In this document: positions 3,001-40,868 of the stretch, one piece after another | Layout of the letters: each line of letters opens with the position of its first letter | How positions within the stretch are numbered: position 1 is the stretch's first letter | Assembly (NCBI GenBank): GCA_022709525.1 | Contig: JAKLIQ010000005.1 | Span: 71,966 to 135,965 of the forward strand | Direction: 5' to 3' | DNA: 64,000 bases | Source of the DNA: Candidatus Omnitrophota bacterium | GTDB lineage: Bacteria > Omnitrophota > Omnitrophia > Omnitrophales > Aquincolibacteriaceae | Notes under the pieces: model-generated | What the model was told of the DNA's origin: nothing | The model's database searches: none | What the model saw: only the letters and a program-made list of their open reading frames with translations | Translations under genes and position numbers: made by a program

Positions 3001-6000
3001 GATGAACGGGCGGCATCGCGCCGAGAGCGCAGTTGGTGCAGTCGCCAGAAAGATAACCGCGGATGAGGTCTTCGGCATTTCCTTCGGAAAGAACTAAATT
3101 GTAGTTTTCTCCGGCCGCCGAGAAAGGAATCGAATTTCCGGACTCGTCAAAACCGGAATTAACTCCAAGCCTCTTCAGGAGATCTTTGAAACCGGCATAC
3201 TGCTTATCTCCCTCCAATCCTTTGGAAACGCTGCCATGCGTTTCAATCAATTCGATAACACGCGCAAACGGAGAATCGGGGCCGGCTTCTTTGAGGCGCG
3301 CTAGAAGCTGTGTTTCAATATCGCTTTTGGAAAGATGAAAAACGGCAGATAGGTGCTGCCAAAACCCGGGAGAAACTCGTTCCTGTAAAATCTTTTTGAG
3401 TTTCTCCTGCATGGTTTCGGCCGGAGGGGCACGTTCTCTCTGACGGGCCTTCTCGATTTTTTCTGTCGCTTCAAAAAATTCCGTCCGAATCTTTCCGACC
3501 GAGACGTTCAGATCTTCTTCGAACTGCTTAAGCTCCGGCTCAAGCGCCTGAAACCGGGCTTGAAACTCTTTTAATTTGATTTCCATTTCCTCGGCGCTTC
3601 CCGAAACCTGAGTAATCTCTTGAAGCAGCGAATCGAATTTTTGTTTGGCGCTCATGAGTTTCTGGTTGCGTTCGAGTTTCTTCGCCTCAGAGATTTTGCT
3701 TCTAATGTCTAAAATTCCTCTTTCGAGTTCGCGCTCGGGATGATGAAGCGCTTCAAGTAAGTCGGCGTATAAGGAAGTCATTTTTTCGAGCTCGGCTTGA
3801 ATCGCGGAAATCTCGCCTTCTTCGTTTGCGCCCGTAAGTTTTCGAAGTCTTTCGCTGAGGGCCTTAAAGGCGTTCTCAGCGGACGACATTTTTCGTTCTT
3901 TGTCCAGCCGGATCGTTTCCTTCTCTAATACTTTCGACCGCACTCTCTCGATATCATCACCGAGCGGATCAAAATCAAGGCCGGAAAAGCGCGTCTTTAG
4001 CGAAGAAAGTTCTTCTTCGAAACGATCGAGCCGGTCAAGATCGGTCAGGGTTTGAAGTGCTCCGAGAAAATCAGTTTCCTTTTGCGCAAGGTCCGCTTTT
4101 TTTCTTTTTTCATTTTTGTCTTGGGTTACCGAATCTTGCACCAGCCGAAGCGCTTCATGCGCTTCGTCTTTGAGACGCGCAAGTTCAGGGTTGGTCTCTG
4201 TCCCCGCTTCCGAATCAATTCGGAGAAGCGCATTTTCAAGTTCACGGAGCTTTTCTTCATCCTCTGCCATAGCTCGAAAACTCAATTTGCGGATAAATTC
4301 AAGATAGCGCGCTTTGTGAGCCGCTGCATGCGCCGTCCTGGATTGATTCTTAAGACTCTCAAGTTCCTCCTTAAGTTGTTGGGTGTCTCGCTGAAGCTCA
4401 TCGCGGGTTGCTTTAAACTGAGTGATTTCCTCGTGAAGCGCATTCTTTTGCTCTCCGAGCGATTTGAGAGCTTGCAGCAGTTCTTCTGTTTCTTTCTTAA
4501 TTTGATCCCGCACCTGTGTAAGAGACTTCAATTCCTCCTCAAGCAATCCAATCTCCTGAGCTAACCGGTTTTTTTGAAGTTCTAATACCTGAAGGTCTTG
4601 AGCGATATCTGTGATTTTTCCACGATCTTCGATCTCGCGTTCTGCTTTTCTTTTGAGTTCGAGCTTCTCCGCGAGCTCATTTTGGAGAGATCCAATACGC
4701 TCCTCATACTGCCGGACATCCTTTTGGGCCTGATCCGCTTTTGTTTTCACCTGCGCTTCAAGGGAAGCTATTTGATCTGTGAGGTCTTTCACCCTTGATT
4801 CGAGCGCTTCGACTTCCGTGTCGCGTCCGGCTTTGGTTTGAGCCAGCTCATCCAACTTTTTTTTGAGCGCATCGAACTCGGTTTGAAGCGTGGAATAGTC
4901 TATGGATTTGGCGGCAAAATCGGATTTGAGAAGCTCAAGCTTGGCGGAAATATCATCTCTTTGACGAGCGAGTTCCTGATTCGACGCGGCGATAGAATCA
5001 TGAAGCGTGCGCATGCCTTCCATTTCTTTTGTAAGCCGATCTTTCGCGGGCTCAAGGCTTCGAATAACTCCGATGAGTTCGCGGGCGCGGAGGCGAAGCC
5101 TCGAAAGAAGCGTTTTCATTTCCTCTGTCCTTTGCGTGAGCGCTTCCTCGTCTTTGCTGAATTTTGTTGCCGGCGGCTCCGGCGCCCGCGGAGCGACCGT
5201 CTCTTTCTCAGGCGCCTCTCTCACAGGAATGCCAACGTCAAGCGCTTGATCCGCTTCCTTACCCTTTTCGAGCAATTTATTCATTTTCTCAGCATCATCG
5301 GCAGGAAGAGTTTTGGTAAAGCCGGAATCAGGATGAAAATAATAAGCCCGTCTTCCGATAGGACTTTGCGTGCCGGGCTTGACATTCAAAAGACCAAGCG
5401 AAGTAAGATCTTTTCTTAAGGTCGGATCGCTCAAACCGTAATGGCCGTATCTTTCGTGATACGCATTAAGCTTTCCTGAACGCTCAAGAAGTTTACGGAA
5501 CGCTTTTAGCGAAAACACGGGGAATGCATTTTCGTTTTCCTGAATCACTTCCCGGATCGTTTCTTTTCTCAGGCGGATTCTTGTCCGCTCTGCGATACGA
5601 GAGGGTTCCAGGCTTGGAGTTTCGGATACTTTTTCTTGCTGAACAGCCGTCTCTTGAGCCGGTATTTCGCCAATCGGTTCGTGGGATTCGAGTTCCGCCG
5701 GCTGAGCGGGCATCCCCTCCAGGGAAGCGCCGGAAATTTGAGATTTTGCCGGTAATTCGGGCGTTTTTTGAGTCTCAGCTGCGGAACGCTCGGACGTTGG
5801 AAGCGACGCCTTTTCTTCAAACGCTGGAATTTTTTCCGCGAAAGGCACGCCCTCTTCAAGATGTTTCAGAATCGAACGCTCGAGCCCGCTTATTTCGTGC
5901 GTTAAATCGGAGAAAATGAAGTTTAACTCGGGAAAATTAAACTCCTCGAGCGTTTCCTGAATGCTGACGAAATACGAACTGATTCTTTGATGCAATGTTT

Positions 6001-13846: not shown

Positions 13847-16158
13847 TGCAGCTCTTCCTCGTCCTTCCAGATCGGAAGCTTGATGATAAACGTGGTGCCT
13901 TTGCCAACCTCGCTTTGAACCAAGATTTTCCCTTTATGCTGGCCTTCAATGATCGCTTTTACGTTATAAAGACCTTTTCCTTCCCCCTCAGAACCCTTGG
14001 TCGTAAATCCATAATCGAAAATCTTGGGAAGAACGTCAGGAGGAATTCCCTTCCCATTATCGGAAAATTCAACGCGAACCATGTCTTTATCATCAGGGTC
14101 AAGCATCGCACGAATTTCGATTTTCTTGGGAAAAATGCCGTCCATAGCATGAATGGAATTTTTGAAAAAGTTAATGAAAACGGCCTTTAAAAGTTCCGTG
14201 TGACCGCGAACCGAAGGAAGCTCGCGAGGAGCATCGACTTCAGGGGGATTCTCAAAACCTTGAGTTTTTACGCGATCTCCATACGTCCTGAGCATACCTA
14301 TCGTCACAATCCCTTTTAAAAAGGTTCTGATAGAAATGCGGCCCATTTTGGCGTATTTGCCCTTGCTGATCTCGGCCAAGGTGCGAGCCACATCATCAAT
14401 ATGCTGACTAGCCTGTTGAACGATGATAATGGCACCTAACGCTTCCTCAAGATTCTCAAAAAGCTCTCGCTTTTGACGAACAGGAACAGCATCGCCCGAC
14501 CTATACCATAGCTTCAAAGATTTACCGATATGGTCAAGTGCCGCTGCGACTTGATCGGCATTGTTGGTCAAACCATAGATGGAATTTTTGATTTCATGGT
14601 TAATACCGCCGGAAAGAGCAGAAACGGCGGCCTCCTCCTTCGCCTGAATGACTTCCGCTTGGGTTCTTTTCAATTCATCGTTCATTTGCTCAAGCTTTAT
14701 GTTTTGTTCGATGAGTTCGTCGTGCTTACGGGCATTTTCAAAAGCAATGGCGGATTCCAACGCAATCGTTTGAAAGAGGTTAATATCCTCCTCGTTATAA
14801 GTTTCATCGGATTTTTTTCCATCCAACACTAAAAGGCCCTGAAGCTTACCCTGATAAAAGCTGGGCACGATGAGATGTGCGCGAAGACGCTTCATGTCTT
14901 CCAACAGTTTTGGCAAATTATAAGAATACATGGCATTTTTCGCATACTTCGTTGCAGCTTCTTCTATCGACTGATATTCCAAATAGGTTTTTTTCTTCTC
15001 GGCTTTCAGATACAAAAGAATCGGCGAATCATATTCCAACTTCTTTATCTGATTAGTCATTTCTTCGGGACGGGATGCTTTTAAAATAAAATTGTTTTCG
15101 CCATTTTCGGGCATATAAATCGCGGCACCTTTGATCCTCGCCCTCAGTGTCAAGAAATGCACCACAAGGCGCAGTTGATGATTCAAACTGTTAATATCCG
15201 CTAAACCTTCACTGGCGATTTTTAATATTCTTCGATAATCAAATTTTTTCTGGAATAGATACTTGTCGGTGAGATTAAGAAGAAGCCGTTCCAATGGGCT
15301 AAAAATTAACGCCGTAGTTATAATCCCTAATAATAAAATAACAAAAGGAGAAGGAGCTCCAAAAACATTTCCTATAGCAACCTGAATTAGGGCAAAAGGA
15401 AAAGCAATTACAGAGACGGCGGCAGCTACTATTCCGGCAAACACTAAGGTCTTTTTTACAATAACTTCAACGTCAATAAATTGATAACGAATCACAGCGT
15501 AAAAAGTAACGCAAACAAAAAAGAAAACGCCCCAAATTCCATAAGGAAATGGAAATAGCTCGATATTATAAACTGGTAAAAAGCAACCAATCCCGCCAAG
15601 ATAACCTAAGGAATTGGCTATTATAAAAAATAATAATTTTTTCTTTTCACCGCCAATCCGCATTCTCGCTTCTAAAAACAATACGGAAAGCGTAAGCATA
15701 ACAAGCAGTACAAATAATGCCGTCCACAAATAAAACAAAGGTCCTGCATTGGGGAAAAAGTGGAAAGTGAATTTTGGAACAACATCCGATATAAATAATT
15801 GGGGTTTTATTAAAATAGAAGCTGATATTATTCCCGCTATAAAATAGGAAATTATTATTACACGCCGCAGCCATTGTTTTTTGCTGTTAATTAAAACGTA
15901 GGAAAAATGCAGAAAAGCAACGGGGATAAATACACCTATAAAATGGCATATCCTTGCTAGCTGATATGAAAGCTCGTGATCTGACACATAAGTGCATGCA
16001 AAAACAAAAAAACTCCAGTGCGCTATGCAGAAAGCATACCAAATAAAATGATGTGCCAACTTTCGATTAGGTGAGTTTCTAAAAACAAATATCGCAAATA
16101 CAAATGCTGTTACAGCAGTAACTAATGCGGATGTGAAATAGTGTTGAGCTGGCGTCAA
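13843..16158 (-). CDS. Multi-transmembrane sensor histidine kinase (N-terminal ~300-aa polytopic membrane domain, GAF-like region, HisKA, HATPase_c).
   Basis: 771 aa. Many hydrophobic helices at the N-terminus. H-box GGINHEIKNSIYGL. C-terminal G-boxes DNGKGIP and GSEGEGKGLYNVK...GKGTTF. The N-terminal membrane part is markedly AT-rich. Confidence 0.85.
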   Translation of the reverse strand: MTPAQHYFTSALVTAVTAFVFAIFVFRNSPNRKLAHHFIWYAFCIAHWSFFVFACTYVSDHELSYQLARICHFIGVFIPVAFLHFSYVLINSKKQWLRRVIIISYFIAGIISASILIKPQLFISDVVPKFTFHFFPNAGPLFYLWTALFVLLVMLTLSVLFLEARMRIGGEKKKLLFFIIANSLGYLGGIGCFLPVYNIELFPFPYGIWGVFFFVCVTFYAVIRYQFIDVEVIVKKTLVFAGIVAAAVSVIAFPFALIQVAIGNVFGAPSPFVILLLGIITTALIFSPLERLLLNLTDKYLFQKKFDYRRILKIASEGLADINSLNHQLRLVVHFLTLRARIKGAAIYMPENGENNFILKASRPEEMTNQIKKLEYDSPILLYLKAEKKKTYLEYQSIEEAATKYAKNAMYSYNLPKLLEDMKRLRAHLIVPSFYQGKLQGLLVLDGKKSDETYNEEDINLFQTIALESAIAFENARKHDELIEQNIKLEQMNDELKRTQAEVIQAKEEAAVSALSGGINHEIKNSIYGLTNNADQVAAALDHIGKSLKLWYRSGDAVPVRQKRELFENLEEALGAIIIVQQASQHIDDVARTLAEISKGKYAKMGRISIRTFLKGIVTIGMLRTYGDRVKTQGFENPPEVDAPRELPSVRGHTELLKAVFINFFKNSIHAMDGIFPKKIEIRAMLDPDDKDMVRVEFSDNGKGIPPDVLPKIFDYGFTTKGSEGEGKGLYNVKAIIEGQHKGKILVQSEVGKGTTFIIKLPIWKDEEELQ

Positions 16159-16162
16159 TTTC

Positions 16163-17152
16163 TTAATTCCTCGCGAAGCAATATTGCATAATTTTTAAAG
16201 GCTCATACTTTAAGTTAAGACTCGAAGATATAAACCCTGCACTCTCAAATATCTTCAAAAACTCTTGTTCGGTTCTATAAACCAACTCCCAGTCCCCTCC
16301 CCATTCCATGAAATGTCTTGCGGGGTTACTCCATTTATCCCGATAATTTGAAATGATCAATAAACCGTTAGGAACTAAAAGTTTTTTAAGATTGGCCACC
16401 AACCGAGTCGATATTTTTTCATCCAAGTAGTCAAAAAGTCCTGTGGAAAATATTAAATGATATTTTTCCGAAAAATACCCTTCAATGTTTTTAGTTAAAG
16501 CTAATTTAATAACATTTTTTTGAAGAAAACATATTTGTTTATTAAAAGTCTTTGTTTTCAGTTTGGACTTTGAATGTTCGATAGCATTTATATCGTGATC
16601 CAAGCAATCCATTAAAACATTCCCCCCTAATTCTTTTGCTTGGTCATAGAACTCGATAATATCAGTACATGGACCTGATGCCAGATCCAAAATTCGAATC
16701 TTGCGTTTTAAAGCATTCTCTTTAGAAAAATCCATTAAAAATTGCTTAAAGTCTTCTTTTCGATTTCTCGTTGCTACGGAAGCTGATGCTTTTAAAAAGT
16801 AGTTGTCCATACATCGTTCAATTCCAGTAGTGTTGGGGGAATTTTTATAAATCTCATCAATAATCATAAAATCGCCATGATACCCATACGGTTTATCAAT
16901 TACATGACGATTGTATTTTCCTAAGCGTATAAGGTCTCGGCAATGCTGGATGAACAAGTGCTTCATTTCATATACTTTACTTTCGTTTGATTCATTATTT
17001 TTCTCAAAATTCGAAAGCCAGTCAAAAACTTCATCAAGAATACTATCTATGTCTTTTTGAGCGTTTTGCCAACCATTAGGCTGAATTTCTAATTCTTTTT
17101 TAACTTTTTCTATTTTCCCTTTATACATCTGAATCATCTCGGAGATATTCAT
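16163..17152 (-). CDS. Class I SAM-dependent methyltransferase with a ~140-aa helical N-terminal domain.
   Basis: 329 aa. Motif I ILDLASGPCTD. Post-I acidic DCLDHD. Motif LIISNY. Not CheR-like (no AxSxGCSTGEE). Very AT-rich gene (~33% GC). Confidence 0.7.
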   Translation of the reverse strand: MNISEMIQMYKGKIEKVKKELEIQPNGWQNAQKDIDSILDEVFDWLSNFEKNNESNESKVYEMKHLFIQHCRDLIRLGKYNRHVIDKPYGYHGDFMIIDEIYKNSPNTTGIERCMDNYFLKASASVATRNRKEDFKQFLMDFSKENALKRKIRILDLASGPCTDIIEFYDQAKELGGNVLMDCLDHDINAIEHSKSKLKTKTFNKQICFLQKNVIKLALTKNIEGYFSEKYHLIFSTGLFDYLDEKISTRLVANLKKLLVPNGLLIISNYRDKWSNPARHFMEWGGDWELVYRTEQEFLKIFESAGFISSSLNLKYEPLKIMQYCFARN

Positions 17153-17156
17153 TAAA

Positions 17157-17552
17157 TTACTTCTTTCTTTTTTCTATGAGAGCATTTTTCACGGCCAAAA
17201 GAAGCTCTTGTATATCGAAAGGCTTCATAATATAGGCGTACGGCATAAGAGCTTTTGCTTCTTTTTCTTTTAGTTCATCTGCAAATCCAGTAATAAAAAT
17301 CGTTGGGATGTTTTCCATTTTTTTTCTTAAAAAGATTTCTCTTAATTTTAAGACGGTTTCAACCCCATCAAGTCCCGGCATTCTAATATCGGATATTATT
17401 AAATCGAAATTTTCTTCTTCCGCCATTTCACAGGCATCTTGTCCTTTCTTAGCAATAAAAACATCGTACCCGGTTTTTTCCAAAACCCTCGAAAAAGTTT
17501 TTGTTAATAATTCTTCATCATCAATCACAAGTATTTTTTTCTTGTCGTCCAT
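17157..17552 (-). CDS. Single-domain CheY-like response regulator.
   Basis: 131 aa. KKILVIDDEE...LIISDIRMPGLDG...IFITGF...IMKPF. AT-rich. Confidence 0.85.
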   Translation of the reverse strand: MDDKKKILVIDDEELLTKTFSRVLEKTGYDVFIAKKGQDACEMAEEENFDLIISDIRMPGLDGVETVLKLREIFLRKKMENIPTIFITGFADELKEKEAKALMPYAYIMKPFDIQELLLAVKNALIEKRKK

Positions 17553-17576
17553 TCTGGCATCTCTCCATTTATAAAA

Positions 17577-18272
17577 TTAACCGCCTTTTTTCGAATCTCC
17601 CGTTAGGGCTTCTTGAATTTTTTCCATTACCACCGTATCAAGATATTCTAAGTTCAACGGTTTTGTAATGTAATCACTTGCACCCAACTCCTTGGCTTTA
17701 TCAATAACAGGTTGATCCACAACCGCCGTAACCATAATGACCTTTATCTCAGGATTGTACTTTTTTATTTCCTGTAAAACCTGCACGCCATCACGCATCC
17801 CACCGCTTGACAGACGAACATCCAGAAGAACAATATTGGGATTGTATTCGCGTAGGATCTCAAGGGCTTTTTCGCCGGAATCGGCTGTGTAGGACTCATA
17901 ACCCTTGTCGCTAAAATAATCACCGAGAAATTCGATAATCTCGGCTTCATCATCAACACAAAGCAGCTTGATTTGTTTTACTTCTTTTTTACTTTTTTCT
18001 TCCATCGGTCGGTTCCCCATCTGTTGGATTTGAGATTCTGGTAAATTTTTTTGCAAAAACTTTACGACATCGCCGACCTTATGCATTCGTTCCACCGCTT
18101 CATCTGAAATCTCGCGGCCAAATGCTTCCTCAAGGGCGATTACGAGTTCTACTGTATCAAGACTCTCTGCCCCTAAGTCTTTTACAAATCGAGATTCTAA
18201 TTTCACTTCCTCGATTGGTAGTTTCAACAAATCGGCTACAATTCGTCGTACCTTTTCTGCAATGTCATCCAT
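17577..18272 (-). CDS. Fusion protein: N-terminal acyl carrier protein domain plus C-terminal receiver (REC) domain.
   Basis: 231 aa. Residues 1-77 ([30 protein letters not shown]) align near-identically with the E. coli AcpP core ([30 protein letters not shown]), including the phosphopantetheine Ser. Residues ~105-225 are a complete REC domain ([10 protein letters not shown]...VLLDVRL...MVTA...ITKP). Confidence 0.8.
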   Translation of the reverse strand: [231 protein letters not shown]

Positions 18273-18348
18273 TCCGGCCGAATGGTCCTTTCTTGCTCTT
18301 ATTCTTACTGCATAATACCCTTCTGTAGTGCTCTCTACGTGTTAAATT

Positions 18349-19137
18349 TTAGTTCTTCAAAAGCAAAGCCCAGCGCCGCATCGAGTTGATAATGGTCGTT
18401 AAATCAAAAGGTTTGCTCAAAACCTCATGAGCGCCAACCGAAAGAAAACGATGATGCGCATCTGGATCGCCAGTCATTCCAACAAAGATTTTAATCGAAG
18501 GATAACTGCCTAAGCGTATTTTTTTAATTAGTTCATCACCTTGCATTTGCGACATCGTTAAATCGGTACAAACAATGTCCGGCCTAAATGATGATATTTG
18601 AATTAGTGCCTCTCCGGGAGAATAGGCAACCTGAGCTTGAAATCCTTCTTCCTCGGCTATATGCTGCATAAAATCACAAATATCATCTTCCTCGCCCACG
18701 AACAATATGCGTGCTTTAAGATCAGGTTTTTCTCTGGTTTTTAAGGCATCAAATTCTTCTCGCGACAATTCAAGTTCCGCGCAAATGACCTTATCGAGTT
18801 CGTGCATTCCTCTTGAGTCTTTTTCAACAACACGAACCTTGAGAGCATCAACCTCCGCGTGATAAGTGTCTAAATACCCTGTAACTACAACCACACGAAT
18901 ATCCGGCATGATCTCTCGCATCTTTTTGATGACTTCGATACCATTCATCTGCGGCATATCCAGATCAATGCAGGCAACGCTTGGGCGATGGCTTTTCACA
19001 AATTCGATTGATGCAAGAGGGTCTTGAGTAGCAAAAGTCATAAACCCACGCCGTTTTAAGGCTTTCTGGAGAACGGCAAGAATTACGGCATCATCGTCCA
19101 CAAGTAGTGCGGAGTAAGCTATTTCTTTTTTATCCAT
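18349..19137 (-). CDS. Response regulator with two tandem receiver domains (paralog of 12550..13344).
   Basis: 262 aa. LLVDDDAVIL...CIDLDMP...VVVTGY and ILFVGEEDD...CTDLTM...SKP. Confidence 0.8.
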   Translation of the reverse strand: MDKKEIAYSALLVDDDAVILAVLQKALKRRGFMTFATQDPLASIEFVKSHRPSVACIDLDMPQMNGIEVIKKMREIMPDIRVVVVTGYLDTYHAEVDALKVRVVEKDSRGMHELDKVICAELELSREEFDALKTREKPDLKARILFVGEEDDICDFMQHIAEEEGFQAQVAYSPGEALIQISSFRPDIVCTDLTMSQMQGDELIKKIRLGSYPSIKIFVGMTGDPDAHHRFLSVGAHEVLSKPFDLTTIINSMRRWALLLKN

Positions 19138-19170
19138 TTACCGTATCCGGCTTTAATTGATGTTGATTTC

Positions 19171-19491
19171 TTATTTCAACCGCCAAAATGGCCCGATTTT
19201 CCATAAAACAAGAACGCTTGCAATGCATGCAATTATACCTATGACCAAAAGTATTGTAGTCACTTTTAATGCTATTTTGGGTAAACCTTTTTCAGTCTTT
19301 GGCTCCTTAGGTAAAAGAAATTCTGCGCCAATAAATAATGCTAAGAATATTAACGGAGCTGCTGCGTAACTCGGTGGGTAAAAGGTCAATGTAAGAATGA
19401 GAAATAGTGCCGCTAAGACAATCAACGAACGCACAATGATTTTCTCTATAGACATACTTCTCCCCCAAAATTGACCTTTTAAGCCTTTCAT
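19171..19491 (-). CDS. Small integral membrane protein (3 predicted TM helices).
   Basis: 106 aa with three hydrophobic stretches. It is the first gene of the minus-strand signalling operon, downstream of an AT-rich 380-bp spacer. Confidence 0.45.
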   Translation of the reverse strand: MKGLKGQFWGRSMSIEKIIVRSLIVLAALFLILTLTFYPPSYAAAPLIFLALFIGAEFLLPKEPKTEKGLPKIALKVTTILLVIGIIACIASVLVLWKIGPFWRLK

Positions 19492-19868
19492 TATTTATCG
19501 GAACTTTCGGCTCTATCTACAGTTAAATCCTCGCATCTATGCGGTTTCTTAATCTCACCGCCTCCTTTGATACCTAATCAAAAAGATCGCCGATCGTCTT
19601 AAGGAAAAATTTTGCAGTTTGCGGCTCATAGAAAACAAGGCGATCCACCCACTCCAGAAGACGAATTCTCGCGAAACCTTTTCAGCAATATGCAGCAAAA
19701 AATATGTTCTTTTTTTATTTTAAAATAAGAAAATTTTATAAGTAAGGCTTGCCATCGGCAAACGGGCAATGCTTCATAAAGTTACTCTTTGAAATTTTTG
19801 ACTTTCCCAGAGCTCCTAGAAAAATAAGAGAAAATTTATAAATTAAGAACACCTTGCACGGTTGATTA

Positions 19869-20489
19869 CTATTTTTTTCCTTGGAATTTACCCATAAAAA
19901 GAAGCTGTCGGATTCGTTCTTTCGACAGTCCCATCTGATACGCTACAGCTTGCAAGGTTCCTAATGTGGTATATAAATTCTTTGCTGAGCGAATTTTCTT
20001 TTTTGTTTCATTGGATATTTCTTTTCGATTTGAGCCGCCTCCAGCGGGCTGCTGACCAGAATAGTGCAGAGATCCTGTGTGGGCGATCAACTTCCATTCT
20101 CTAGTCGGCATCTTTGTGTAAATCTTACAAACCCGTCCTTTCCAGTGGAGGTCTTTCCCTGTTTTTTTATGCTGCCAAAGCGTGTCAATATCTACGACTG
20201 CATAAGCTCCGTCGCCTTCCTGGCTGATTTCAATTTTTATTGTATTTCTCCTATTATGAATTAAGTTGTAGCCGTCAAAGATATCCTGCCAGTTCTTTCG
20301 CCAACGCTTGTAATTAAAACGCCCTAATTCAAAAACCCAATGGACAGGATTGTGAGCATTTTGATGCGGAGGCCAAGGCCAAACCATATCTGGGTGAATA
20401 ATGGAAAGAAATAAATCGGGGTTTTTGGTATTCCATCCCCTTGTTTCGAGATCCACCATCGCTTGGATTTGAGCCTTAATGTTTTTCAT
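19869..20489 (-). CDS. Fusion of an NTF2-like/SnoaL-like (DUF4440-type) domain with a C-terminal sigma-70 region-4-like helix-turn-helix.
   Basis: 206 aa. The N-terminal 150 aa have a SnoaL/NTF2-like pattern. The C-terminal LYTTLGTLQAVAYQMGLSKERIRQLLFMG resembles the sigma-70 r4 TLEEVGKQFGVTRERIRQIE. The start overlaps the upstream gene by 4 bp. Confidence 0.5.
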   Translation of the reverse strand: MKNIKAQIQAMVDLETRGWNTKNPDLFLSIIHPDMVWPWPPHQNAHNPVHWVFELGRFNYKRWRKNWQDIFDGYNLIHNRRNTIKIEISQEGDGAYAVVDIDTLWQHKKTGKDLHWKGRVCKIYTKMPTREWKLIAHTGSLHYSGQQPAGGGSNRKEISNETKKKIRSAKNLYTTLGTLQAVAYQMGLSKERIRQLLFMGKFQGKK

Positions 20490-28904: not shown

Positions 28905-29213
28905 TTATTGCTGCCTCAGGTAATAAAGCTTGGAACGGCGCGCTTTGCCTTTTCCGCTTACCGTGATCTTCTCGACCGTGGGTGAGTGGAGCGGGAAGAT
29001 CTTTTCGACCTTATCCCCGTAGCTTTCCTTCAGGACCGTAAAGCTGGCGCGAACGCCTTTTCCTTTTTTACGGATGCAGATCCCTTCAAAAAGCTGGGTG
29101 CGGGTCTTATCGCCTTCCTTCACGCGGATGTGCACCTTCAGGGTGTCTCCGACGCGGAATTCCGGCGTTTTTTTGGATGCAGCTTCTTTTTCGACAATGT
29201 CCATTTTGCTCAT
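28905..29213 (-). CDS. rplS: 50S ribosomal protein L19.
   Basis: 102 aa. FRVGDTLKVHIRVKEGDKTRTQLFEGICIRKKGKG...SPTVEKI. Confidence 0.92.
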   Translation of the reverse strand: MSKMDIVEKEAASKKTPEFRVGDTLKVHIRVKEGDKTRTQLFEGICIRKKGKGVRASFTVLKESYGDKVEKIFPLHSPTVEKITVSGKGKARRSKLYYLRQQ

Positions 29214-29221
29214 GGCTATTC

Positions 29222-29321
29222 CCCCGTTAGAGTTTCAACTTGTATGAAACTGTTTTTCTTGTTGAGTAGTTCATATTTAAAAAATAATTGCCCGTCTTGA
29301 GCCGTTCTAGCTCTAACGGGG
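29222..29321. repeat. ~100-bp element bounded by 11-12-bp terminal inverted repeats CCCCGTTAGAG / CTCTAACGGGG with an AT-rich interior (copy A).
   Basis: Seen directly. The same terminal inverted repeats bound a second ~110-bp element at 40187..40296. Interiors share GAACGG(G)C...TTAT next to one terminus but are in opposite orientation relative to the downstream gene. Copy A ends 9 bp upstream of the rplS ATG. Confidence 0.6.
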
Positions 29322-29334
29322 TAAATCCTTGAAA

Positions 29335-30006
29335 TTATTTCAAAAGGTCCGGCCGTTTCCGGCGCGTGGCTCGTTCCGCCTCATGATGGCGCCAAAGCGC
29401 CACTTGTTGATGATCTCCAGAGCAAAGCACCTCCGGAACTTTCCACCCCCGGTATTCCCGGGGCCTTGTGTAATGCGGGTGCTCCAGTTTCCCCGACTGA
29501 AAACTTTCATGCCGGACCGACTCTTTGTTCCCCAAAACCCCGGGGATCAGTCTCACGATCGACTCGATCAGGCAAAGGGCCGGGGCCTCGCCGCCCATCG
29601 TGATAAAATCGCCGACCGAAATCTCTTGATCGGCCAAATGATCTTTGACCCTTTGGTCGACGCCTTCATAATGCCCCGCGATCAAGACCAGGTGTTTTTT
29701 TCTCGCGAGCTTTGCGGCAAGCGTTTGGCTCATCGGCTCGCCCTGCGGGTCTAAAAGGATCACCCAGGCTTTTTTTCCGACCTCTTCAACGCATTCAAAG
29801 ATGGGTTCGGGTTTCATGACCATGCCCGCCCCGCCGCCAAACGGTTTATCGTCCGCCGTTTTATGCCGGTCATGCGTCCAACCGCGAAGATTGTGCGTCC
29901 GGATCCTTACAAGCCCTTTGGCCTGGGCTTTCTCCAGAAGCGACTCTTCCAGCGGACTCTTAAAAAAACCGGGGAAGAGCGTTACGATATCGATCGCAAG
30001 CGCCAT
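29335..30006 (-). CDS. trmD: tRNA (guanine37-N1)-methyltransferase.
   Basis: The listed ORF starts upstream and overlaps rpsP. Homology begins at the internal ATG 30006 (MALAIDIVTLFPGFF...). It carries the SPOUT-knot glycine-rich motif (DKPFGGGAGMVM). Confidence 0.88.
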   Translation of the reverse strand: MALAIDIVTLFPGFFKSPLEESLLEKAQAKGLVRIRTHNLRGWTHDRHKTADDKPFGGGAGMVMKPEPIFECVEEVGKKAWVILLDPQGEPMSQTLAAKLARKKHLVLIAGHYEGVDQRVKDHLADQEISVGDFITMGGEAPALCLIESIVRLIPGVLGNKESVRHESFQSGKLEHPHYTRPREYRGWKVPEVLCSGDHQQVALWRHHEAERATRRKRPDLLK

Positions 30007-35346: not shown

Positions 35347-35500
35347 GAACGCATAACTTACGGTCGTTACGCCGTAAGTTATTTGCGTGAATTAAACCCC
35401 GCACCCAGCTCGCATGAGCCAAGAAGGGTTATTTAAATTACTAATTTTTCTGAAAGATGCTTTGTTCCCTTTGCCCCAGCCGCCAATTTGGGTGCGGGGT
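35347..35500. promoter_or_regulatory. Structured rho leader / coaE 3' region. Contains a 14-bp stem hairpin (CGCATAACTTACGG...CCGTAAGTTATTTGCG), a 10-bp inverted-repeat pair CCCCGCACCC...GGGTGCGGGG flanking an 84-bp AT-rich interior, and the motif CGCACCCAGCT.
   Basis: Seen directly. The architecture (GC-rich 10-bp terminal inverted repeats plus ~85-bp AT-rich core) resembles the CCCCGTTAGAG elements. Confidence 0.45.
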
Positions 35501-39089: not shown

Positions 39090-40172
39090 CTATCTTCTTC
39101 CTCTGGCCGGCGCCTGGATCTTCGAAAGCTGAACGCTCAGTTCGTGGGCATCCACGGCGAACTCAAGCGCTGCGTCATAGCCGATCACGCCTTGGGAATA
39201 GAGTTGTTTTAAGTAATCGTCGAGCATGATCATTCCGAAACGCGACCCCGTCTGCAACTCCGAAAGAATCTGATAAGTTTTGCCTTCCCGGATAAGGTTG
39301 CGGATGGCCGGCGTCGCGAACATGATCTCGAACGCGGCAACGCGCCCTTTCCCGTCCAGTCGCGGGACCAAGACCTGGGAAATGACAGCGACGATCGTCG
39401 CGGCGAGCTGGACCCGGACAAGCGGCTGTTGGTGGGAGGGAAAAACATCGATGATGCGATCGACCGTTCGTGCGGCACCCGTCGTGTGAAGCGTGGAAAA
39501 GACCAAATGGCCCGTTTCCGCGGCGCGGATCGCCGATTCCATGGTCGGAAGATCGCGCATTTCCCCGATCAGGATGACATCCGGGTCCTGCCTTAAGGAT
39601 TTTACGATCGCTTCGGAAAAACTCGGTACGTCCTCGCCCACTTCGCGCTGGGTCACAATGCCTTTTTTATGCGGGTGGACGAATTCAATGGGGTCTTCCG
39701 CCGTAATGAGGTGCTTCGGAAAGGTTTCGTTGATGTAATTGAGCATGGTGGCGAGCGTCGTCGTCTTACCGGAACCGGTGGGGCCGGTCACAAGTACGAG
39801 ACCGCGCGGAAGGTTCAGAGTTTCGATGATCTGCGGCGGCAGGCCGATGTCCTGGAAGGTATAGAACCGGGACGGCAGAAGGCGCAACACCATGGAATAA
39901 TGACCTTGTTGCTTAAAACAGGAAACGCGGAATCTGGCTTTTTCCTTAAATGAAAAACCAAAGTCGATACCGCCGACTTCCTCGATCTTCTTACGCTGGA
40001 CTTCCGTCGTGATCTCCTTCGCCAGCGCCTCTGTATCTTGAGGCACCAAAGGCCTTGAGCCGACCGAGACCAGGCTCCCGACCATGCGGTAGGTCACGGG
40101 CCTTCCCACGGTCAGATGAATGTCCGAAGCTTCTTTTTCAACCGCGCCCAACAAAATATCTTCGATAGCCAT
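39090..40172 (-). CDS. pilT: Type IV pilus retraction ATPase PilT.
   Basis: 360 aa. Walker A GPTGSGKTTT. The AIRNLIREGK motif typical of PilT/PilU. Confidence 0.9.
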   Translation of the reverse strand: MAIEDILLGAVEKEASDIHLTVGRPVTYRMVGSLVSVGSRPLVPQDTEALAKEITTEVQRKKIEEVGGIDFGFSFKEKARFRVSCFKQQGHYSMVLRLLPSRFYTFQDIGLPPQIIETLNLPRGLVLVTGPTGSGKTTTLATMLNYINETFPKHLITAEDPIEFVHPHKKGIVTQREVGEDVPSFSEAIVKSLRQDPDVILIGEMRDLPTMESAIRAAETGHLVFSTLHTTGAARTVDRIIDVFPSHQQPLVRVQLAATIVAVISQVLVPRLDGKGRVAAFEIMFATPAIRNLIREGKTYQILSELQTGSRFGMIMLDDYLKQLYSQGVIGYDAALEFAVDAHELSVQLSKIQAPARGRR

Positions 40173-40186
40173 AGAGAGCTCCTTTG

Positions 40187-40296
40187 CCCCGTTAGAGATG
40201 AACGGGCTTATAATACTTTAAACATACGCCATTAACTAAGCACCCGTTTAAAATTAATTCGATACAAAAATATAAACGATTTTATCTCTAACGGGG
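40187..40296. repeat. ~110-bp element bounded by terminal inverted repeats CCCCGTTAGAG / CTCTAACGGGG (copy B), ending 15 bp upstream of the pilT ATG.
   Basis: Seen directly. Same termini as 29222..29321. Confidence 0.6.
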
Positions 40297-40361: not shown

Positions 40362-40868
40362 TTAGAAAACCAGTCGCGTGATCCCCCATAGAGCCATAGA
40401 AATAAATCCTGCCAAAAGACAAAGAAGCGGCCATCCTTTCATGGATGAGGGAACCCTCGAAAGAAGCAACTGGTACCGGAGCCCTAAAAAGCAGACCTGG
40501 AAAAATGCGATTCCCAAGCTTATCGCCCAAACCCATGAAAGCGAGGTTAAAAAACCTTCCTGCCTTAAAAGAACCGCAAAGACCGTTACGGCGACACAGA
40601 GGAAAAAAAGATCCGTCTTTTTTTGATAACGGGCAAGAAGGTAGCTCGCGGCCCCGATCCCCAGGAACGCGTACTCGCGGGCAAGGGCTTGGGCCTTCCC
40701 GACCGACGTCCATACGATCCAGAGCGCGACAAGCAGCGCCGTCGTTAAAAAAAAGTCTACGGCTTCGCGCCAAACGCGCCTCAGTCCTTCTTTGGGGTCC
40801 TGCAGAGGCGCGGGTTTTGCGCCCCGCACCGCCAGCAAGAAACCGAACGCGATGATCAAAAAATACAC
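40362..40868 (-). CDS. Hypothetical integral membrane protein (4-5 TM).
   Basis: 168-aa hydrophobic ORF at the 3' end of the bio-rnf operon. No GLCP-type RnfA/E motif. Confidence 0.4.
   Translation of the reverse strand: MYFLIIAFGFLLAVRGAKPAPLQDPKEGLRRVWREAVDFFLTTALLVALWIVWTSVGKAQALAREYAFLGIGAASYLLARYQKKTDLFFLCVAVTVFAVLLRQEGFLTSLSWVWAISLGIAFFQVCFLGLRYQLLLSRVPSSMKGWPLLCLLAGFISMALWGITRLVF

Follow-up and report, generated by a model that had tools for sequence, protein, structure and literature searches.

The closest published counterpart of the repeats described here is the Ssn nuclease with its NTS/SRM repeats. Ssn is a single-domain GIY-YIG protein of ∼94 amino acids (aa) that binds a directional hairpin repeat on single-stranded DNA (ssDNA) and cuts just upstream of it; copies of this repeat, which number in the hundreds, stand on both sides of its genes (Chenal et al. 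2025, Nat Commun, PMC11893778). The authors noted an insertion sequence (IS)-like layout, compared it with REP/RAYT, and reported no duplications or empty sites (PMC11893778). Here, we analyzed a 64-kb stretch of DNA (the window) from a Candidatus Omnitrophota metagenome-assembled genome (MAG) known from anaerobic digesters. The window carries two short repeats with identical arms, one upstream of rplS (copy A) and one upstream of pilT (copy B). We consider it likely that these sequences are internally deleted, nonautonomous miniature inverted-repeat transposable elements (MITEs) of a tiny GIY-YIG mobile element, with the nuclease as the presumed mobilizer. The family is a variant of the pairing of a small nuclease with a repeat of its own.

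As with Ssn, the nuclease of this family is a single-domain GIY-YIG protein of about 90 aa (here 86 aa, PF01541), its gene is bracketed by its own inverted-repeat motif (here with the left arm 7 to 10 nt before the ATG and the right arm in the last codons), and the motif is directional and dispersed in many mostly intergenic copies. The conserved Y5, Y16, and E62 also nearly coincide in position with Y6, Y17, and E64, the active-site residues published for Ssn. The architecture is different, however. Instead of a compact hairpin of 20 to 50 nt, 11-bp termini lie 80 to 260 bp apart and enclose the gene or its remnant, and the right terminus is inside the open reading frame (ORF), with the stop codon in the target. 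In addition, the present family shows 4-bp duplications, empty sites, nesting, and insertion locked in orientation, and its hosts are Patescibacteria and Omnitrophota, whereas the published hosts are Neisseria, Wolbachia, and Rickettsia. A search for the published degenerate SRM pattern was negative for the window copies, the 26-bp palindrome at the junction of tandem copies, and the surroundings of five GIY genes.

Other known repeats resemble the family in part. REP/REPIN sequences and RAYT, a domesticated IS200/IS605-type HUH transposase, likewise combine a small enzyme gene, flanked by palindromic repeats that it is thought to move, with numerous intergenic palindromic doublets of ∼100 bp that lack the gene, and ssDNA hairpin recognition is likely. 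The enzyme here is nevertheless a GIY-YIG hydrolase and not an HUH tyrosine transposase, REPINs are without target duplication, and REP/RAYT pairs are inherited vertically within a lineage, whereas here 70 to 80% identical proteins and identical termini occur across phyla. Classical MITEs (Correia/CREE in Neisseria, RUP, ERIC, and Nezha) share the size of ∼100 bp, terminal inverted repeats, a short target duplication, an intergenic position beside gene starts, and cotranscription into hairpins. They are derived from or assigned to DDE insertion sequences, whereas the sole related coding element here encodes a GIY-YIG nuclease and the insertion polarity is fixed on an asymmetric target. Rickettsia palindromic elements (RPE) are palindromic sequences of ∼100 to 150 bp that can sit in frame in genes without destroying them, but they occur in one lineage only and are not known with these termini or this duplication. 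Rickettsia is among the repeat-rich genomes in the Ssn paper (PMC11893778), and a deeper link of RPE to the present family is possible. Finally, IS200/IS605, the smallest known autonomous insertion sequences (∼700 bp), are likewise minimal in size and have hairpin ends and strand- and orientation-specific insertion next to a 4- to 5-nt target. However, their ends are not terminal inverted repeats, their insertion duplicates no target sequence, and their chemistry is of the HUH type; the present element is less than half their size.

Anatomy of the window repeats and their parent element

Copies A and B have exact 11-bp arms, CCCCGTTAGAG on the left and CTCTAACGGGG on the right (Table 1). A first-pass annotation of the window had described identical 11- to 12-bp terminal inverted repeats around AT-rich cores of ∼80 to 90 bp, and both features were recovered: the core of copy A is 78 nt with 32% G+C, and that of copy B is 88 nt with 27% G+C, in a window with 50% G+C. 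The annotation also had the copies ending 9 to 15 bp before a start codon; the proximity holds, while the measured distances are 8 nt to the ATG of rplS and 14 nt to that of pilT. The paired arm pattern is not expected in shuffled sequence (0 expected; n = 2 in the real window), and A and B are its sole copies within the window. The remaining arm matches with one mismatch are inside coding sequence and chance-like. Neither copy (100 and 110 bp) has coding capacity beyond remnants of the ends of a parent ORF, and all genes flanking the copies are on the minus strand.

The full-length parent element has a defined anatomy. It measures 276 to 279 bp and consists of an 11-bp left repeat (YCCCGTTAGAG), a leader of 7 to 10 nt, and an 86-codon GIY-YIG ORF whose final four codons, S-L-T-G, double as the right repeat (CTCTAACGGGR). 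The element itself has no stop codon; TAA or TGA is supplied by the 4-bp target TRAA that is duplicated on insertion. Coding copies were found in loci L002, L223, L224, L213, and L019. The arms in L002 (Omnitrophota) are 386 bp apart around a GIY-YIG ORF that is broken by a nested 106-bp copy, and the ORF of the Saccharibacteria locus L019 is 65% identical to the L002 ORF. With slashes marking the junctions with the flanks, L223 reads C/CCCGTTAGAG-ATTACGGCTT-ATG...TCT CTA ACG GGG/TAG, and L224 reads CCCGTTAAAG-ACAAAAAT-ATG...CTCTAACGGG/ATGA. Therefore, the right arm represents the last four codons, and the stop codon comes from the flank.

Homologues of the nuclease are numerous, with 2,517 in a 90%-clustered collection and 7,087 representatives at 50% clustering (E ≤ 1e-3). 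The best 120 homologues are 68 to 82% identical to the L019 query protein and are assigned by their source records to Omnitrophota, Patescibacteria, Planctomycetota, and Flavobacteriales. At least 84 of these 120 end exactly at xLTG (63 at SLTG), and 17 continue past KRFLSLTG into unrelated tails. The genes neighboring the parent element differ in every case. The protein belongs to PF01541; its AlphaFold2 model has a pLDDT of 94, and Foldseek matches it with UPF0213, Slx1, and I-TevI. The best relative with a solved structure is UPF0213 BH0048 (E = 7e-7). Residues Y3, Y5, Y16, and G18 are invariant, and R24, R26, E62, and N76 are nearly so. The nuclease thus looks intact, with a confidently predicted GIY-YIG fold.

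An empty counterpart of a full-length element was found for L223. Relatives of its flanking acyltransferase gene, in L225 (94% identical) and L226 (85%), are followed by the next gene after 10 or 49 bp, and GAG[CAAA]CCAAATC in L225 corresponds to GAG[TAAG]-279 bp-[TAGA]CCTAGTC in L223. This is a clean empty site, and it confirms the target duplication. Many short copies of the family end in ...CGC TTC CTA TCT CTA ACG GGG, which corresponds to the final seven nuclease codons; judged by these ends and by the related coding elements with the same termini (L002, L223, and L224), the MITEs derive from the GIY-YIG parent element. As a separate observation, the left arm in L223 (660 to 700) gives a new stop (CCC CGT TAG) to the truncated acyltransferase gene, as it does in L127 (2205 to 2352) for trmD, the upstream gene whose 3′ end it replaced.

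What remains of the parent differs between the two window copies. The 3′ half of copy A (plus strand) aligned with the 3′ end of the nuclease gene in L223, L224, and L002 at z values of 3.6, 3.2, and 2.1, respectively (z ≤ 1.8 for full-length elements in the opposite orientation), and the 5′ half of copy B (plus strand) aligned with the leader and first codons (z = 2.9 for L223 and 2.0 for L002). The 3′ end of copy B reads AAACGATTTTAT-CTCTAACGGGG-TGA; its match to K-R-F-L-S-L-T-G was made by eye, and the alignment z value is only 1.4. Given the alignments to the gene ends and the right flanks TAAA and TGAA, both window copies are sense on the plus strand and hence share one polarity, antisense to rplS and pilT. 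The first-pass annotation had instead put the copies in opposite orientations and reported a shared subterminal motif, GAACGG(G)C. Neither point held: the sequence in copy A is a remnant of the nuclease 3′ end and that in copy B is a remnant of the 5′ leader. The cores are not significantly similar in either orientation (z = 0.6 and −0.4), and therefore such a motif does not fix the relative orientation of the copies.

Table 1. Coordinates of the window repeats, their parts, and neighboring genes (strand gives the sense strand for the repeats)
Feature	Position	Strand	Remarks
MITE copy A, 100 bp	29222..29321	+ (sense; antisense to trmD/rplS)	between trmD stop (29335-29337) and rplS start (29213)
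Copy A left terminal inverted repeat, CCCCGTTAGAG	29222..29232	+	mRNA strand reads CTCTAACGGGG
Copy A remnant of GIY-YIG gene 3′ end, TATTTAAAAAAT..CGTCTTGAGCCGTTCTAG	29274..29310	+	matches codons Y-L-K-N-R-L-K-R-F-L
Copy A right terminal inverted repeat, CTCTAACGGGG	29311..29321	+	parent codons (T)CT CTA ACG GGG = S-L-T-G
Copy A right flank, TAAA	29322..29325	+	TRAA target class; would give stop TAA in nuclease frame
MITE copy B, 110 bp	40187..40296	+ (sense; antisense to pilT)	between upstream gene stop (near 40362) and pilT start (40172)
Copy B left terminal inverted repeat, CCCCGTTAGAG	40187..40197	+	pilT Shine-Dalgarno AAAGGAG begins 2 nt past arm on mRNA strand
Copy B remnant of GIY-YIG 5′ leader and first codons, ATGAACGGGCTTATAATAC..ACATACG	40198..40230	+	matches L223 ATTACGGCTT ATG GTA TAC ACA TAC G
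Copy B putative last-codon remnant and right repeat, AAACGATTTTAT CTCTAACGGGG	40274..40296	+	right repeat at 40286-40296; matches AAA CGT TTC CTA TCT CTA ACG GGG = K-R-F-L-S-L-T-G
Copy B right flank, TGAA	40297..40300	+	TRAA class; would give stop TGA in nuclease frame
rplS (ribosomal protein L19), downstream of copy A	28905..29213	−	PF01245
trmD, upstream of copy A, same operon as rplS	29335..30006	−	
pilT, downstream of copy B	39090..40172	−	relatives up to 92% identical
Third window repeat, same geometry, other arms, ACCCCGCACCCA..TGGGTGCGGGGT	35396..35500	undefined	12-bp perfect arms around 81 nt; intergenic

Distribution and insertion footprints of the family

To place the window copies, we scanned GTDB, one genome per species, for 10-bp arm cores with a 65- to 95-nt gap. 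At least 120 loci in these species genomes matched, against ∼17 expected by chance for 20 specified bases. Among the matches listed, Patescibacteria account for 68 loci (26 in Saccharibacteria and 42 in other Patescibacteria) and Omnitrophota for 16, followed by Desulfobacterota-type genomes (6), Planctomycetota (5), Nitrospirota (3), Bdellovibrionales (2), single representatives of other phyla (5), and unclassified genomes (15). The arms occur almost exclusively as convergent pairs 20 to 220 bp apart, and certain genomes have several copies per 8 kb. Some genomes hold near-identical copies at separate loci (L044/L055/L116, L074 three times, and L076/L105), and nesting of one copy within another element was also seen. 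A scan of viral contigs with the arm pattern gave no matches, and therefore the element does not seem to be phage-borne. Rfam searches of the window and 15 related loci yielded no family that covers the element, a literature search with the arm sequences returned unrelated primers only, and nothing relevant was found in the literature on MITEs in Patescibacteria or Omnitrophota. The repeats thus constitute a widespread family, derived from a GIY-YIG mini-element, that is described in no paper of the literature searched.

The family includes several distinct forms. A subfamily of ∼110 bp is common to Omnitrophota, Nitrospirota, WOR-3, Desulfobacterota, and some candidate phyla radiation (CPR) genomes (L005, L012, L027, L031, L037, L044, L058, L069, L088, and L094; e.g., L069 2767 to 2877); its members contain a further right arm in the interior and two internal hairpins preserved by compensatory changes (7 pairs doubly changed). 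In the mini forms of L064 (3480 to 3515) and L012 (3406 to 3434), both arms surround a loop of 8 to 10 nt, and one of these is in frame within a CapA-like ORF; they are probably deletion derivatives. In L010 (4972 to 5127) and L106 (2730 to 2820), tRNA-Thr genes (CGU and UGU) lie exactly between the arms, which prolong the acceptor stem, and L010 additionally has a partial tRNA copy and then a second right arm. The arm pair in L087 (3040 to 3160) is part of a far longer, near-perfect palindrome on a contig binned as Desulfovibrio and may be a chance or unrelated match.

The sequences next to the arms bear the marks of insertion. The hexamer pattern beside the arms is nTxyAY at the left end and RTxyAn at the right end, and the central 4-mers are identical on both flanks in 82 of 129 copies, usually as TNNA (mean of 11 and maximum of 21 when partners were shuffled). 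TTCA/TGAA and TAAA/TTTA are the commonest flank 4-mers. Tandem copies have one 4-mer in common, giving a 26-bp palindrome. When the right end was set by the nuclease-codon signature, 28 copies had TRAA/TRAA flanks and none had TTYA/TTYA; TRAA following GGR yields TAA or TGA in the nuclease frame. The orientation lock is present in gene-less copies too, and therefore it points to the mechanics of insertion rather than to selection for a stop codon. Across the family, the copies show the target-site duplication, dispersal, and filled/empty polymorphism characteristic of MITEs.

Two recombination sites were considered and rejected. In an integron attC site, the GTT/AAC core order would be the inverse of that observed, and crossover would not leave the observed flanks. 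A tyrosine-recombinase core site (10-bp arms with a 6-bp spacer) was prompted by the 26-bp tandem palindrome, but only the central 4 positions are duplicated, and the outer ones agree in 44 to 50%.

Terminal inverted repeats with a 4-bp duplication are also the classic signature of DDE transposases, and the YCCC termini and TNNA flanks have the CC start and 4-bp duplication of IS1380/piggyBac-type ends. The copies could thus be ordinary MITEs moved in trans by a DDE transposase that our searches did not find, the GIY-YIG ORF being a captured passenger; other cargo does fit between the arms (the tRNA-Thr genes in L010 and L106), and no strand-transfer activity is known for an 86-aa hydrolytic nuclease. 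However, no transposase recurs beside the copies in ∼0.9 Mb of the 120 listed loci, where only housekeeping neighbors recur, and tblastn with the ISEcp1 (IS1380) transposase finds nothing in the window or in L001 to L211. A passenger gene is also difficult to reconcile with a right arm that lies in the nuclease ORF in more than 100 homologues from several phyla and with MITE ends that come from the nuclease gene ends. Finally, a symmetric DDE transpososome does not predict the orientation lock (28 to 0) on a nonpalindromic target. We therefore regard this explanation as unlikely.

The same footprints bear on a host-domesticated system of the Ssn/SRM type, in which the repeats would be hairpins for a resident ssDNA nuclease that restricts or shapes DNA in natural transformation and would spread mainly by recombination. 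In the published case, single-domain GIY-YIG nucleases of ∼94 aa are indeed flanked by their own hairpin repeats, of which there are hundreds (PMC11893778). In the present family, type IV pili abound in the host phyla, which are presumed to be competent, and copies sit beside pilT and inside pilin genes. Yet insertion is what target duplications, fixed orientation, nesting, tandem arrangement, and clean empty sites indicate; in addition, old copies decay, and the arms do not match the SRM consensus, which makes this an improbable primary explanation. It is compatible with a family of GIY-YIG-derived MITEs, since being mobile in origin does not preclude a role in the host.

In Omnitrophota, copies occur in or at prepilin genes, exactly at the peptidase site, as leader-G/FT[PLE...SLTG FT]LIE (L005 901 to 1011; L023 6335 to 6424 and 6919 to 7020; L074 6073 to 6279 and 7115 to 7219; L046; L070; and L109). 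Six copies are in frame and stop-free, and copies in L005, L023, and L074 are in frame within prepilin leaders, a parallel to RPE; the GGGG end recreates the Gly at position −1, and the insert would leave with the leader peptide. The arms themselves are not pilin leader coding sequence, as only 7 of 262 flanks are pilin N termini and the S-L-T-G reading comes from the nuclease C terminus. In Patescibacteria, the right arm directly abuts, with no spacer, the true start codon of housekeeping genes (those for adenylate kinase, L9, S8, S20, GyrA, DnaN, and ValRS; e.g., L024 1979 to 2092, L093 1866 to 1983, L103 7022 to 7123, and L119 6884 to 6996). Flanks that start with ATG or GTG open an ORF of ≥80 aa in 45 of 68 cases, and the upstream flanks of CPR copies often have TGnTAnAAT-like −10 boxes near the duplicated ATG. 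For CPR copies, neither a mini-ORF in the leader nor read-through translation of the element was retained, as copy lengths were inconsistent with them (modulo 3, 53/47/31).

The rplS and pilT loci in relatives

At the trmD-rplS junction, the element is present in a single orientation in all seven assemblies of the species, and an 86% identical relative (L127) has an element with a different core at this junction. It is absent from a 90% identical relative (P0002), in which trmD and rplS overlap, and from L128, L129, L130, and L131, in which the gaps are 5 to 57 bp and armless. In relatives, the two genes overlap or are ≤25 nt apart, barring one 57-nt gap; therefore, copy A interrupts a tightly coupled pair and is itself almost certainly cotranscribed. 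The site upstream of pilT is empty in the closest relatives (L161, L152, L132, and others, with PilT identities of 92%, 91%, 90%, and others), which read ..CATTTY/AAAGGAG at the point where the window has a perfect copy. Two further groups of pilT relatives are filled with different copies, longer or shorter, with decayed and uncompensated arms. Both sites are filled/empty polymorphic among close Omnitrophota relatives.

In predicted folds of either strand, the arms of each copy pair to close a long hairpin (−31 to −39 kcal/mol; z = −2.9 to −5.7), including hairpins of −31 and −39 kcal/mol with z values of −3.6 and −2.9, respectively. As passengers in the trmD-rplS gap and the pilT leader, cotranscribed copies A and B should fold in this way. 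The first-pass annotation had the terminal repeat contributing to or abutting the ribosome-binding sites, which agrees with our results: the arm beside rplS provides the G-run of the Shine-Dalgarno-like GGGGGAA, of which 4 or 5 G's are paired in the predicted copy A fold, and the pilT Shine-Dalgarno sequence lies next to the arm but remains outside the predicted copy B stem. Either copy may affect the expression of its downstream gene, and the copies may alter the translation of essential genes.

These contacts with the Shine-Dalgarno regions, the stable predicted hairpins, and the pairing of the rplS G-run are what a conserved cis-regulatory RNA stem governing rplS and pilT translation would display. 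However, close relatives lack the element at these junctions, Rfam has no match for it, the same arms stand beside unrelated genes in many phyla, the arms decay without compensation, and the cores are unrelated. Given the empty relatives and the uncompensated arm decay, turnover of the element is shown, and a conserved regulatory stem is very improbable. The first-pass annotation had anticipated this in favoring a small mobile element over a cis-regulatory RNA, with the caveat that only two copies, conserved in the orthologous loci of relatives, would suggest an ordinary stem. Instead, the family occurs in at least 120 species genomes with duplications, tandem and nested copies, empty sites, and a parent element, and both window loci are polymorphic.

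Inverted repeats around an AT-rich segment directly upstream of genes, including pilT and pilin genes, might also suggest an inverton, in which a recombinase flips the core to switch the downstream gene. A segment of 78 to 88 bp is short for recombinase-mediated inversion, and several observations speak against such a switch: the seven independent assemblies of the species have a single orientation, polarity relative to the flanks is fixed family-wide, no recombinase recurs nearby, and no sigma-70-like promoter was found in copy A or copy B. We consider an inverton extremely improbable. No terminator-like site was found on the minus strand at copy A.

Proposed mobilization and its implications

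The preferred explanation thus remains that the window copies are deleted derivatives of the GIY-YIG element. By analogy with Ssn, we infer that the GIY-YIG nuclease mobilizes the family. Elements and MITEs insert at TRAA in one fixed orientation, duplicating 4 bp. The nuclease would recognize the paired-arm hairpin on ssDNA, as Ssn nucleases do, and cut at its base, at the TRAA junctions, and host functions would complete the joining. As a speculation, a host ligase that rejoins compatible 4-nt ends would explain the fixed polarity and the common 4-mers; more generally, cutting at the hairpin base with rejoining at TRAA would explain the fixed orientation, the subfamily-specific 4-mers, and the 4-mer shared by tandem copies. 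Because intergenic gaps are tiny in these compact genomes, copies come to lie at Shine-Dalgarno sequences, start codons, and prepilin leader codons. That the parent is an autonomous transposon whose sole protein is the 86-aa GIY-YIG nuclease, with sticky-end-like rejoining at TRAA, is a tentative proposal that we hold with somewhat more doubt than belief.

Several points weigh against a nuclease-mobilized origin of the window copies. A hydrolytic 86-aa nuclease conserves no bond energy and cannot join DNA, and movement and nuclease activity are predictions from sequence. The left duplicate is missing in both window copies (ATTC versus TAAA in copy A and TTTG versus TGAA in copy B), so that neither shows a target-site duplication, their alignment to the parent ends is modest (z = 2 to 3.6), and the window carries no nuclease gene of this GIY-YIG family. 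The family scan needed perfect arms, and arm conservation thus partly reflects how the copies were found; the phylum labels were taken from record titles, and some rest on MAG binning. The cores are mostly unrelated among copies (89 of 131 are singletons). Lastly, every filled pilT lineage has identical junctions, which fits either one old insertion with later interior turnover and excisions or repeated site-specific insertion.

The third window repeat (Table 1) has an arm that matches 10 of 11 bases of the repeats CCCCGCACCTAT..ATAGGTGCGGGG in L041, which have TAG flanks and bracket an 86-aa GIY-YIG ORF. Because L041 has a GIY-YIG ORF between these repeats, the third repeat is probably, as far as its arms indicate, a MITE of a sister family. 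On the minus strand of L041, two GIY-YIG mini-ORFs (81 and 86 aa) are adjacent (4063 to 4308 and 4476 to 4780), each with its own inverted termini that start with CCCC and end with GGGG. The stop of the 81-aa ORF is just past the terminal GGGG, and that of the 86-aa ORF overlaps the start of the right repeat. The pair hints that such units form a superfamily whose members differ in arm sequence. Elsewhere in the window, positions 14000 to 20000 have a G+C content of 35 to 40% (∼52% elsewhere) and are possibly a horizontally acquired island.

If the parent is indeed autonomous, its catalytic class would be new among prokaryotic transposases, and it would be by far the smallest self-mobilizing DNA element, setting a new lower size limit for autonomous elements. 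Ssn/SRM pairs would then be transposons and not merely host ssDNA restriction systems. The family also adds the insertion footprints missing from the Ssn/SRM description, namely, target duplications, empty sites, nesting, and fixed polarity. Each family would pair a small nuclease with a hairpin in a sequence-specific manner and is a potential tool. For annotation, copies at starts, Shine-Dalgarno sequences, gene 3′ ends, and prepilin leaders mislead gene callers into extended or truncated ORFs and false leaders. The design is highly economical: the target supplies the stop codon, the left arm gives a TAG stop to a truncated gene, and the right-arm GGGG recreates the prepilin −1 Gly, so that copies would survive in pilin genes as extended leader peptides. 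A dispersed repeat of ultrasmall uncultured bacteria, Patescibacteria and Omnitrophota, is thereby tied to a defined coding element of 276 to 279 bp.

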